Source: Octopus vulgaris
Taxonomy: Eukaryota
DNA: 64,000 nt
NCBI GenBank assembly: GCA_951406725.2
Contig: OX597814.1
Coordinates: forward strand, 171,678,001-171,742,000
Direction of reading: 5' to 3'
A model generated the notes under the pieces. It ran no database searches, had not been told where the DNA came from, and saw only the letters and a program-made list of their open reading frames with translations. Made by a program: the position numbers and the translations under genes. How positions within the stretch are numbered: position 1 is the first letter of the stretch; the number at the start of each line of letters is the position of its first letter. Of the stretch, positions 2,316-58,488 are shown one piece after another.

Positions 2316-2365
2316 TTTGTCAAAATATTTTCGTCGCTAAAATCCGCGACCTGTTCACTGACAAA
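2316..2365 (-). ncRNA. Minimal type-I hammerhead-like ribozyme, G3:C8 core variant
   Basis: Exact reverse complement of the motif at 2421-2470. Confidence 0.7.
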
Positions 2366-2420
2366 AATCCGTGCTGCATCACGGATGCAGCACGGATTTT
2401 GCAGAGATGCAGCACGGATT

Positions 2421-2470
2421 TTTGTCAGTGAACAGGTCGCGGATTTTAGCGACGAAAATATTTTGACAAA
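2421..2470 (+). ncRNA. Minimal type-I hammerhead-like ribozyme, G3:C8 core variant
   Basis: TTTGTCA [helix I] GTGAACA G GTCGC-ggatttta-GCGAC [helix II] GAAA ATAT T T TGACAAA [helix I']. Helix III is the palindrome AATATT. Confidence 0.7.
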
Positions 2471-2734
2471 TTAAAATTAAATGTTGAAGTGAATCGAACG
2501 GCTTTTGTGTGTTTCTTAAATGGCTTATAAACACCTTCCACGCTGCACTTGATAAGAATAAAGTTCTAGTCAAGTTATGGAGTCGATAAAATCAATTAAT
2601 CCCTGCTGAAATAAGAAGTATACTATGTACGTACTTGTGCGTATGTACTCATATCATACATGCTTATACACGGTTGAATAATAGCGACAAGTGCAGAATA
2701 TGTGTTGAGAGGGGTGAAACGGTATGGCACATTT

Positions 2735-2977
2735 AAGGCGGCGAGCTGGCAGAAACGTTAGCGTGCCGGGCGAAATGCTTAGCGGTATTTCGTCTGGCGC
2801 AACGTTGTGAGTTCAAATTCCGCTGAGGTCGACTTTGCCTTTCATCCTTTCGGGGTCGATAAATTAAGTACCAGTTACGCACTGGGGTCGATGTAATCGA
2901 CTTAATACCTATGTCTCTCCTTGTTTGTCCCCTCTATGTTTAGCCCCTTGTGGGTAATAAAGAAATAGAAATAGGTA
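2735..2977 (+). mobile_element. SINE family A, full-length
   Basis: aaggcggcgagctggcagaaacgttagc...gagttcaaattccgctgaggtcgactttgcctttcatcctttcggggtcgataaattaagtacc; matches 1452-1687. Confidence 0.88.
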
Positions 2978-2985
2978 TGGCACAT

Positions 2986-55039: not shown

Positions 55040-55400
55040 TTCTTTTACAGTCAATTGATTGCGGCCATGGTGGGGCACCGCCTTGAATTTTTTTGTCGAA
55101 TGAATCGACTCCAGTACTTATCTTTTAAGCTCGGTACTTATTCTATCGAACTGTTTTGCCGAACTGCTAGGTTACGGTGTGACACAAACACACCAACACC
55201 GGTTGTCAAGTGGTGGTGGAGGGAAACACGCAAAAACACTCATAAATCTATGTACATATACATAAACATGACGGGCTTCATTCAGTTTCCGACTACCAAA
55301 TTCACTAACAGGGCTTTGGTTGACCCGAGGCTATAGTAGAATGGCACTTGCCCAAGGTGTTACGTAGTAGGACTGAATCCAGAAACATGTGGTTAGGAAT
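55040..55400 (-). mobile_element. SINE family B, diverged
   Basis: gcggccatggtggggcaccgcc...cccgaggctatagtagaa..cacttgcccaaggtg. Confidence 0.8.
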
Positions 55401-55412
55401 CAAGCAAGCTCA

Positions 55413-55855
55413 GATCAGGTGCTAGAGCATAACAGACTGGACCTGGTGGTAGTGTACAAGATGCACCTTATATAATCCATATAGTTGATGTTGCATGCCC
55501 CTTTGACTCACAAATAGTCAAGAAGGAAGGCGAAATGATAGATAAATATAACCCACTTCTATACGAAATAGCCCGGCTATAGAACATGAAGAAGGTGACG
55601 ATAGTGCCTTAGGGAACAGTATCAGATGGCATCAAGAGGAATATAAAGGAAATTGGAATAGAGTGCCCAGTAGAATTGTTATAAAAGGTTTGCCTCCTTG
55701 GCACGGCCAGAATAATCAGGAAAGTATTAGATAGCTGAAAAGAATGGCAAGCATAGTGCCGTAAGCTACAAGCAGCAAGCCCGTTACGCATGTAAGACTC
55801 CAAGAGCTCCAACAAAACTTGTGATAAAGAGAAGTAACAACAACAATAATAATAC
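55413..55855 (+). mobile_element. R4/Dong-type element 3' end: decayed RLE endonuclease domain
   Basis: DQVLEHNRLDLVVV..HIVDVACPFD..IVKKEGEMIDKY..L.YEIARL..VTIVP..GTV...KVCLLGTARIIRKVLDS*, then a tail (AAC/AAT)n. Confidence 0.85.
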
Positions 55856-57688
55856 TTTAAGGCTAGTGATTGGTGTATCTTATTTTAAAGTCACTTTCAC
55901 TAAGTCTAATCTATTTTTCTTTCGGTTCTCTTGTTTGGCAGGACAGAGATGATCTTGGTATCGTAGCCGAGTGAGGTAATCATGACCTAATGGGCATATA
56001 TCAGGATTCCTAAAGTTGCATTCTGGAGAATTGATGTTTTTCATATTAGCGCCACAAATCTAAGAAACTTCCACGAAACGTATATTGAAGATTTCCTCAT
56101 ACCTATGGTTAACGGGGAAGTGTTTAGCTAATATGTCTAGGAAAATGTCTAGGAAATGTTTAACGTATATTAGTTAACTTAGCCACATATAATTTTAGAC
56201 GTGGTACTAAATTTGAGTCGAAGTGGCCAGTGTGTTTTTATAGCAGGAGCTACCTTGTCGAAACTTTCTTTAGAGAGAAGAGGTTTAGAGATTCGTAACT
56301 AATGTTAACTATAAGGTTTTTAAAGATGATAGGCGAATAGCAGGATTGTTTGTATATACCTAAGTTTTTCATGCGATTTAATGTAAGGATTGTAAGTATT
56401 TAAATTTAGGTCCAGTAAAACATCTTTTAAATTACTTGAGTGAGATTTTTTGCTACTGTAATTATAAAACTTATAATACTAGAAGCAAAAATGAGGTTTA
56501 TTCTTCATTTGACGGGTAAAAGGACATGACCTCAATTCCATAAACGGAATTATCCCTTGTTCCTTGGAACGTCTTTCCCGTTTTTAATCGTATGTTATTT
56601 GGGACTGAGCATTTGCCGGATCGTGAATGGTACGCTATACAAGCTCGTCCGCTTACTGCGTTATTTGTAACTTTCGTATAACTCCACTATTCATTAAATT
56701 ATGCTTATCTCTCGGTGAAATCATAGTTTTTCTCTTTATATTTTTTTCTGAATCTATATCAACAACCGAAGGGCACACTACACACACACACACACACACA
56801 CACACACACACACACACACACACACACACACACACACACACACACACACACACACACACATATATATATATATATATATATATATATATATATATATATA
56901 TATATATATATATATATACATATATATATACATACATGCACACATTCCAGAACAGATAATGTGCACATTATAGACGAATACGCGTATATGTATACACACT
57001 CATATAAACAGAAACATACGCATGTCTGCCCATATATATATATATATATATATATATATATATATATATATATATATATATATATATATATATATATATA
57101 TATATATATATATATATATATATATGTATATATACATACACACACACACACACACACACGCATATATATATATATGTATACACACACACACACACACACA
57201 CACACACATATATATATATATATATATTTGGGAAAGCGTGTATTTACATATGCGTGTCTATCTATGTGTGTGTGCGTGCGTGAGAGTGAGTGTGTGTTTA
57301 CATTCATTGATATCTATCTGGCGTTGATGTTATGTATATTTGTATGTACAAATATTTACTGTCTCTAACAAACAGTGCATGGCAACCGACAATTCTAGTT
57401 CTACTTTGGCCGGTATCGCTTCCTAACGAAAGTTTGATCAAAGAGTGGTCACAGTTCATGCTTGCATAGTAACAGTACCGGTTGGATATAAACATGGAGA
57501 TTAACCCACCTTGCTATCTTATTATGTCTAATGTTATATTTTCAAGGGTAAAGGGTGGGGGTAACAACGACGAACATTGTGGAATTCGGCCGAGGAATTC
57601 ACGTTGACCATAAAAGCATATAAACAATCTTGTATTTAAAAAAATATACATAAATGAATAAATATGTAAACAAAAAATAAATATATAT

Positions 57689-58488
57689 AGGCGCAGGTGT
57701 GGCTTTATAGGCGCAGGTGTGACTGTGTGATAAGAAGCTCACAACGCAACCACATGTTTCCGAGTTCAGCCTCACTGCGTGGCGCTTTGGGCAAGTATTT
57801 TCTACTGTATCCTCGGGCTGTCCAAAACCTTGTGAGTGGATTCTACAAAAACACTTCAAGGTGGTGCTCCAGGCTTAGTGGATTTTGTAGAGGAAACTGA
57901 AAGACGCCCGTGTGAATGTGTATATATATATATATGTGTATATATATATATATATATATATATATATATATAGAAAAAACAAGTCAAGATAGAAAATGGT
58001 ATATATATATATATATATATATATATATATATATATATAATATATATATATGCTTGACCGTTAAATCTAAAAGTTTCTTTTATTCTCTCTGTTTATTTTC
58101 TCTTATTCCTTTCTATTGAAGAGCGTAGGCCCGAAACGTAAAAGACTTTTTCTCTTTCCCGTGCGTCAAACTAATACATCTATTTGTTATTCATACACAT
58201 GTTTTCGTCTTTGTTTTTCTATAAATTTCAGCTATATGTGTGTGTGTGTGTGTGTGTGTATGTGTGTGTGTGTGTATGTCTTTGTGTTTGAGTTTGTCTC
58301 CCCATCATCGCCTGAGAACCAGTGTTGGTGTGTTTACATCCCCGCAACTTAGCGGTTTGGCAAAGCGACCAATAAAATAAGTAGTAGGACTTAAAAAATA
58401 AGTCCTGGGGCCGAATTGTTCTACAAAAACACTTCAAGGCAGTGCTCCAGTATGGCTGCAATCAAACGACTGAAACAAGTAAAAGAAT
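57689..58488 (+). mobile_element. SINE family B split by insertions in its internal (TA)n
   Basis: 5' half at 57689-57912 and 3' half at ~58240-58488, with a PLE-like fragment at 58055-58230 between them. Confidence 0.8.
58109..58144 (+). ncRNA. Decayed hammerhead-like motif, A6U family
   Basis: CTTT CTATTGA A GAGC-gtag-GCCC GAAA CG T A AAAG. G5A change and one helix II mismatch relative to 42578-42613. Confidence 0.5.

Follow-up and report, generated by a model that had tools for sequence, protein, structure and literature searches.

The question raised by this stretch of the Octopus vulgaris genome (GCA_951406725.2, contig OX597814.1, 64,000 nt; hereafter the window) is whether a set of short repeats with a hammerhead-like layout, some of them with cores other than the canonical CUGANGA, are ribozymes of Penelope-like elements (PLEs), and whether the altered cores can still cut. 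The analysis favours, as the probable answer, that the motifs are minimal type I hammerheads of the pseudo-long terminal repeats (pLTRs) of several PLE families, with cores fixed in each family and likely slow cutting at residue H17 in intact tandem elements. The evidence for this comes from the pairing of core positions 3 and 8, from the core letters held in common by each family and from the place of the motifs behind PLE open reading frames (ORFs).

Hammerhead motifs and the 3:8 pair

The nine motifs of the window are given below. The seven core positions are numbered from N3, the first core letter, and H17 is the predicted cleavage-site residue. Motifs, and families without a core name, are referred to by the N3 coordinate of the window copy.

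2316..2365, minus strand: minimal type I hammerhead motif, core GTGAACA (G3:C8), N3 at 2358
2421..2470, plus strand: G3:C8 motif GTGAACA, N3 at 2428, with cleavage predicted after U17 (2463)
10728..10764, plus strand: U3:A8 motif TTGAAAA, N3 at 10731
23956..24002, plus strand: canonical-core motif CTGAAGA, N3 at 23960
25280..25328, minus strand: third G3:C8 motif GTGAACA, of the subfamily with a 9-nt loop II, N3 at 25322
25904..25941, plus strand: canonical-core motif CTGATGA without the 5' strand of helix I, N3 at 25904
26137..26176, minus strand: canonical C3:G8 motif CTGATGA, N3 at 26173
42578..42613, minus strand: U6 motif CTGTAGA with C3:G8, a 4-bp helix II and an ACGU palindrome, N3 at 42609
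58109..58144, plus strand: decayed U6-family copy CTATTGA, N3 at 58113

The first-pass annotation, which was made from the sequence alone and mostly cited the low end of each motif, had proposed these nine sites, and all of them were found where it had placed them. Six of the nine passed a strict descriptor, and the 23960 motif was detected only when helix III was allowed to be longer and helix II to begin with a U.U pair. The type I three-helix layout (G5, G12, A13, A14, A15.1-U16.1 and H17) was found in the window copies and in the family majorities, except that the 58113 copy has no G5 and half of helix I is gone from the 25904 copy. For example, the motif at 2316..2365 has an extra G, a 5-bp helix II, a palindromic helix III, U17 and a 7-bp helix I, and the copy at 2421..2470 is its inverted partner.

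The nine sites fall into six high-copy repeat families, and the common features first described for them hold to different degrees. The families had been called unrelated, which is not so for three of them, as the G3:C8, U3:A8 and 26173 families are sister PLE lineages in the tree described below. A tiny, mostly palindromic helix III was confirmed as a perfect palindrome in four of the six families; it is imperfect at 26173, and at 23960, where positions 10.1 and 11.1 form the U.U pair, it is a 4-bp stem with a palindromic loop. The extra purine described as usual after the core was recovered as an additional nucleotide between position 9 and position 10.1 in four families and is missing at 23960 and 25904. 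The shared layout of helix I holds generally but fails at 25904, where the 5' strand is gone, although it is present in longer copies of the same family. CTATTGA had been listed as a family core and is instead a decayed copy, with A at position 5 and one helix II mismatch; G5 is found in 97 of the first 100 genomic copies listed. A literal CUGANGA core occurs in three of the six families; the G3:C8, U3:A8 and U6 families deviate from it, U3:A8 being an accepted variant.

The hammerhead likeness could have arisen by chance in AT-rich palindromic repeats, and the Rfam results would agree with that: no covariance model reached its gathering score anywhere in the window, and at two sites tested (one of them canonical) the hammerhead models gave no match at E<=10. 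The best 150 of the 583 Rfam matches in the window were mostly microsatellite matches to miRNA models. Chance was measured with a descriptor in which all seven core positions were free, run on 664 kb (60 evenly placed 10-kb stretches and the window), and with forty local dinucleotide shuffles of the scanned DNA as the control. The scan gave 25 matches, 17 of them with U4, G5 and A9, whereas the shuffles gave a mean of 3.3 matches and a mean of 0.075 (three in total) with these three letters. In addition, the reversed patterns used as controls for the family counts below gave 0 matches, and the motif lies at the expected place behind PLE ORFs both here and in 39 of 79 metagenome loci. The chance explanation is refuted.

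The same scan bears on the claim that positions 3 and 8 covary as C:G, G:C and U:A, which proved correct. N3 and N8 were paired in 17 of the 17 matches with U4, G5 and A9, compared with 44 of the 131 pooled shuffle matches. A paired majority core was also found, with pairing not demanded, in all 16 multi-locus clusters (362 loci; nine C:G, six U:A and one G:C), which are not 16 independent events because some of them are splits of one family. No A3:U8 family was seen in the 16 clusters or in the first 100 matches of two pattern searches, no genome-wide search for one having been made. The Watson-Crick pair between positions 3 and 8 belongs to the active conformation of the hammerhead, and the swap is likely kept because the active fold is needed.

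Family cores and their Penelope-like elements

Families were counted in the 2.8-Gb, microsatellite-rich assembly as exact pattern matches on both strands, and core proportions were taken from the first 100 matches listed, all from the start of the window's contig. Each family carries its own fixed core, which is C3:G8, U3:A8, G3:C8 or a U6, C4 or C9 variant. The G3:C8 family, with loop II subfamilies of 8 and 9 nt, has 5,052 copies when the core is left free, and 94 of the first 100 carry G3:C8 and none C3:G8; the full core is present in 112 of 119 copies and U17 in all 119. The U3:A8 family has 3,702 copies (U3:A8 in 85 of 100), and a second U3:A8 motif occurs on GIY-YIG loci outside the window. 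The U6 family has 16,446 copies, with U6 in 96 of 100 and the other fixed core positions (3, 4, 5, 8 and 9) in 97 to 100, while N7 takes all four bases (U 44, A 25, C 20, G 11). The 23960 and 25904 families have 3,536 and 38 copies. The 26173 motif has the same A9 core and extra G in 18 of 21 neighbours and comes from an older subfamily, whereas the youngest intact copies of this PLE have C9; in the younger subfamily (3,000 exact matches) C9 is found in 53 of 53 motif copies. Lastly, a family outside the window has 13,772 copies with C4 in 69 of 100 (for example at L195:4320). Its master state is likely C4, because C4-G5 forms a CpG, whose decay produces the canonical letter.

These majorities do not return to CUGANGA in the G3:C8, U3:A8 and U6 families, so that the non-canonical cores persist as had been proposed. 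Among the 27 copies of seven families present in evenly spaced DNA totalling 600 kb, only 5 had CUGANGA and 22 did not. An extrapolated sum, in which inverted pairs are counted twice, comes to about 36,000 exact copies with non-canonical cores genome-wide. The G3:C8 stretch was also present in sequence runs of four organism codes at shares of 0.53-0.94, and no alternative letter of its core reached 5% in four runs, all from one organism. These four runs were contigs and showed neither a splice joint nor the end of a molecule, a neutral result as to RNA.

The motifs had further been expected to be linked to PLE ORFs for a reverse transcriptase (RT) and a GIY-YIG nuclease, and this link was established for five of the six families, with the ORFs located elsewhere in the genome and the motif on the same strand and 3' of the ORF. 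Upstream of the G3:C8 motif lies a microsatellite-rich untranslated region (UTR) of ~1 kb, preceded by an ORF in which RT motifs, a Cys linker and a nuclease of GIY-YIG type were recognised. The end of the ORF was followed by the motif on the same strand within 1.5 kb in 23 of 29 loci chosen by their 3' UTR, and the family's ORF was found at 0 of 30 unselected motif loci; thus most G3:C8 copies are short. The open frames of this PLE reach 1,025 aa, and at locus L291 (minus strand) RT and GIY-YIG share a 615-aa frame. A related ORF precedes the motif of the U3:A8 family, which was seen in three of six downstream stretches, with an intact core in two. The U6 family, to which the 42609 motif belongs, and the 25904 family follow Neptune-like ORFs. 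Two motifs flanking the ORF in tandem elements were seen for the U6 family and for the C9 subfamily, whose 1,312-aa ORFs have a motif on either side, 4.6 kb apart. Copies of this youngest PLE family (loci L333-L362) are 99% identical and stand in tandem 4.6-kb units, for example at L338:57-105 and 4645-4690.

A single ORF with the RT first and then a GIY-YIG-type nuclease with a CCHH motif was read directly in L291, L338 and L503. Pfam matches were significant only for L301 (GIY-YIG and RVT_1), weak for P0003 and absent for L291, which matched L301 over the RT core with an E value of 8e-9. All ORFs examined have a CX2-5CxxC linker before the nuclease, which, along with RT fingers that carry no insertion, is a feature of Neptune and Nematis elements. 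The PLE lineage that includes the G3:C8 family (read in L291 and L338, with 286 relatives) carries its nuclease at the C terminus, yet ~50 additional residues separate RT motif A from motif B and the N-terminal region is long; it is far from the Neptune-like rows of a tree that is without named reference PLEs. Two candidates for a parent element were rejected. Locus L257 has an upstream nuclease frame that is of a different PLE abutted by the G3:C8 repeat, and the 790-aa frame of the window at 18513-20885 is a LINE-type RT without GIY-YIG. No PLE ORF was found among the 15 window frames scanned, 12 of which had no Pfam family.

The tree was a quick maximum-likelihood search of 33 frames, six of the 39 chosen rows having been left out for want of a long unbroken frame. 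C3:G8 and U3:A8 families are the sisters of the G3:C8 family (SH-aLRT 99), and the C3:G8 and U3:A8 relatives from metagenomes lie outside this group. From this position, G3:C8 arose once, by two transversions, from either C3:G8 or U3:A8. Among the 39 motif-bearing metagenome loci (of 79 examined), three have U6, one has C9 (L368) and none has G3:C8. Two of the U6 loci are placed within a U3:A8 clade (support 100) that excludes the octopus U6 family, itself a long and partly filled branch, and U6 therefore likely arose at least twice. One metagenome PLE motif with a canonical core (L363:4967-5022) has an apparent U15.1-A16.1 instead of A-U.

Origin of the short copies

The window copies are 5'-truncated insertions, several of them fold-back, and are likely inert fossils of uncut RNA. 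The following insertions were delimited.

2179..2551, both strands: short inverted PLE pLTR insertion, minus arm 2179-2380 and plus arm 2405-2551
10492-10922: 5'-truncated pLTR copy of the U3:A8 sister PLE family, holding the 10731 motif
23903-24130: fold-back insertion holding the 23960 motif
25327-25531: inverted truncated partner of the 25280..25328 motif copy
25743-26019: truncated, inverted insertion holding the 25904 motif

In the first of these the minus arm is 99% identical to L292 and longer at its 3' end, and the plus arm is 98% identical.

The short copies might instead be an independent non-autonomous family, resembling short interspersed elements or retrozymes, that spreads through its own ribozyme-processed RNA. 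The lack of an ORF at the 30 unselected G3:C8 loci is in line with this, as are the 31 of 33 G3:C8 copies whose likeness to the long element ends no more than 23 nt upstream of the core (a boundary measure used for G3:C8 only, being unreliable for the 23960 and 25904 families owing to subfamily differences) and the 6-kb non-coding tandem unit of the 23960 family. However, the short copies match the 3' end of ORF-bearing elements at 98-99% identity, and they have an inverted arm and a tail, as PLE insertions typically do (PMC8557442). They also hold an uncut motif and are solo or inverted, with no head-to-tail arrays seen, whereas non-LTR retrozymes are head-to-tail units of 170-400 nt with a canonical type I hammerhead. 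The independent-family explanation is very improbable and may apply to the 23960 family only. The 6-kb unit of that family, which is microsatellite-rich (locus L502), is possibly a non-autonomous PLE derivative.

With PLE hammerheads as the preferred explanation, a tandem element would be transcribed from its pLTR, with the motif near the 5' end of the RNA. Two motifs, or the PLE protein, would stabilise helix III and permit a slow cut after H17. The short genomic copies would form when the RT copies an uncut 5' end and then folds back, as suggested by the upstream boundary of the 31 G3:C8 copies, which was also seen directly.

Two observations concern the sequence at this boundary. At L262:2220-2245 a branch-point-like word, a pyrimidine tract and an AG occur at the point where most short copies start, 20 nt ahead of the G3:C8 core; this signal is a possible 3' splice site or transcription start. 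In the 23960 family, at L502, an AG likewise stands just ahead of helix I.

Other features of the window are as follows.

18513-20885, minus strand: LINE-type RT frame, 790 aa
8280-8849, minus strand: second RT fragment
14489-14863, minus strand: Tc1/mariner-type transposase fragment
24120-24765: ~220-bp unit in three head-to-tail copies
~4950-7050: tandem duplication with 1,231-bp spacing
26365-26625 and 27514-27774: inverted repeat pair, 261 nt
1454-1689 and 2733-2968: inverted repeat pair, 236 nt, a common dispersed repeat that flanks the G3:C8 insertion

Possible catalysis, published relatives and significance

Slow cutting by these motifs would probably take place as dimers or be aided by the PLE protein. 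The expectation differs between cores. We consider it quite probable that the G3:C8 core still cleaves. A G3-C8 hammerhead with C17 is reported to have lower activity (PMC3884650), and the U17 of all 119 copies, which avoids a G3-C17 pair, would fit this; folding still predicts a G3.U17 wobble in the motif. The case for the U6, C4 and C9 cores is weaker, and their cleavage at a reduced rate appears somewhat doubtful. The change to U6 is uncompensated and may lower activity instead of rewiring the core. In favour of the preferred explanation, positions 3, 4, 5, 6, 8 and 9 of the U6 family are each retained in 96-100 of the first 100 copies listed and only N7 is free.

Several points weigh against cutting hammerheads in PLEs of this genome. 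First, PLE minimal hammerheads cleave poorly in vitro (PMC4209133), insertion in vitro needs no cleavage, and no RNA-seq ends were found at the cleavage site in the Anolis PLE studied (PMC11167929). Secondly, the youngest intact family, with its 1,312-aa ORFs, carries C9 in all 53 motif copies, and U6 or C4 is found in the two largest families; these three changes are uncompensated, and other substitutions at the same positions slow cleavage (PMC3088659, PMC10085705). Third, the predicted energies of dimer helix III are weak (-1.7 to +2.2 kcal/mol). Fourth, none of 140 motif-bearing locus strands showed a tandem G3:C8 element in which an ORF lies between two motifs of the same strand, and no PLE ORF was found in two 7-kb stretches of the 23960 family. 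Lastly, G3:C8 arose once here and is a single evolutionary event, in a tree that is a quick search with long branches.

A serious rival is loss of catalysis, in which the motifs are PLE hammerheads by descent but the crippled cores (U6, C4, C9 and perhaps G3:C8) no longer cut, the fold being kept for protein binding or merely inherited. Retrotransposition would then not depend on the ribozyme, and families with such cores would have multiplied all the same. It would explain why the uncompensated changes sit in the most abundant and youngest families. Catalytic mutants leave insertion in vitro unaffected (PMC11167929), Naiad PLEs thrive without canonical hammerheads (PMC8557442), and C9 could pair with G12, which would trap the general base. 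However, the 3:8 pair of the active conformation, in which the core is rearranged (PMC6155905), has been kept through double changes in all 16 clusters. Only N7, a known free position, differs among the amplified U6 subfamilies, U6 and C9 each recur in unrelated PLE lineages, and natural U4C, A6C and A9U variants retain some activity (PMC3088659, PMC10085705). On balance loss of catalysis is rather unlikely, and hammerheads with slow cutting in intact elements remain the preferred explanation.

The system itself is known, and the part that appears new is the natural occurrence of G3:C8, U6, C4 and C9 cores at the level of families. Metazoan PLE pLTRs were described by Cervera and De la Pena 2014 to carry minimal type I hammerheads that cut weakly as dimers (PMC4209133), and a review treats small dimeric PLE variants with a short palindromic stem III, dimer cleavage and PLE association (PMC6765202). 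Like the former, the octopus motifs lie in the pLTR and have a short helix I, an additional nucleotide that separates 9 from 10.1, G10.1-C11.1 in the majority of families and a palindromic helix III. Solo and inverted copies run to thousands in both, and both include a family variant with U3-A8, which has ~1,300 matches in Schistosoma mansoni (PMC4209133). The two differ in that the 56 representatives in Fig. S3 of that paper include no G3:C8, U6, C4 or C9 core and no cephalopod, while in the octopus the variant cores are fixed in families of 3,000-16,000 exact copies.

The Anolis Poseidon element PAc (Frangieh et al. 2024, PMC11167929) is similar in its hammerhead at the pLTR-ORF junction and in the internal RT start that yields short tailed copies. 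Its cleavage requires the PLE protein and its main template is uncut RNA. An engineered C3G/G8C hammerhead of PAc partly regains cleavage; there G3:C8 is an engineered mutant, whereas in the octopus it is the natural state of a family. Natural hammerhead variants include U3-A8, U4C, A6C, A9U and U10.1-U11.1, some with low activity (PMC3088659, PMC10085705), and a U.U first pair of helix II, as at 23960, is likewise known (PMC3088659). These variants (Perreault et al. 2011, PMC3088659; PMC10085705) are described as rare single sequences, unlike the octopus variants, which make up the majority of copies sampled, and G3:C8, A6U and A9C are not named among the natural core variants in the available parts of these two papers. 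The first-pass annotation overrated the novelty of the variants: U3:A8, the extra nucleotide and the palindromic helix III had already been published (PMC4209133). No natural G3:C8 or U6 PLE hammerhead was found in the literature searched, which did not cover the Lünse 2017 alignments, Przybilski 2007 and Nelson 2008. Priority for the G3:C8, U6, C4 and C9 cores is uncertain.

PLE hammerheads might even obey a looser core code, in which dimers or the PLE protein let G3:C8, U6, C4 and C9 cores cut, and in which most hammerheads here, recurring in the PLEs of other animals, are missed by CUGANGA or Rfam searches. This broader possibility is unlikely as a whole. Censuses based on CUGANGA or Rfam do undercount hammerheads in animal genomes, given the 22 of 27 sampled copies without CUGANGA. 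For ribozymes that cleave poorly by themselves and are dispensable for insertion in vitro, the octopus families supply a mutational series made by nature among sister families. It comprises the 3:8 pair in three states and the U6, C4 and C9 changes, with intact young elements for C9. Such a series could separate selection on catalysis from selection on the fold only.

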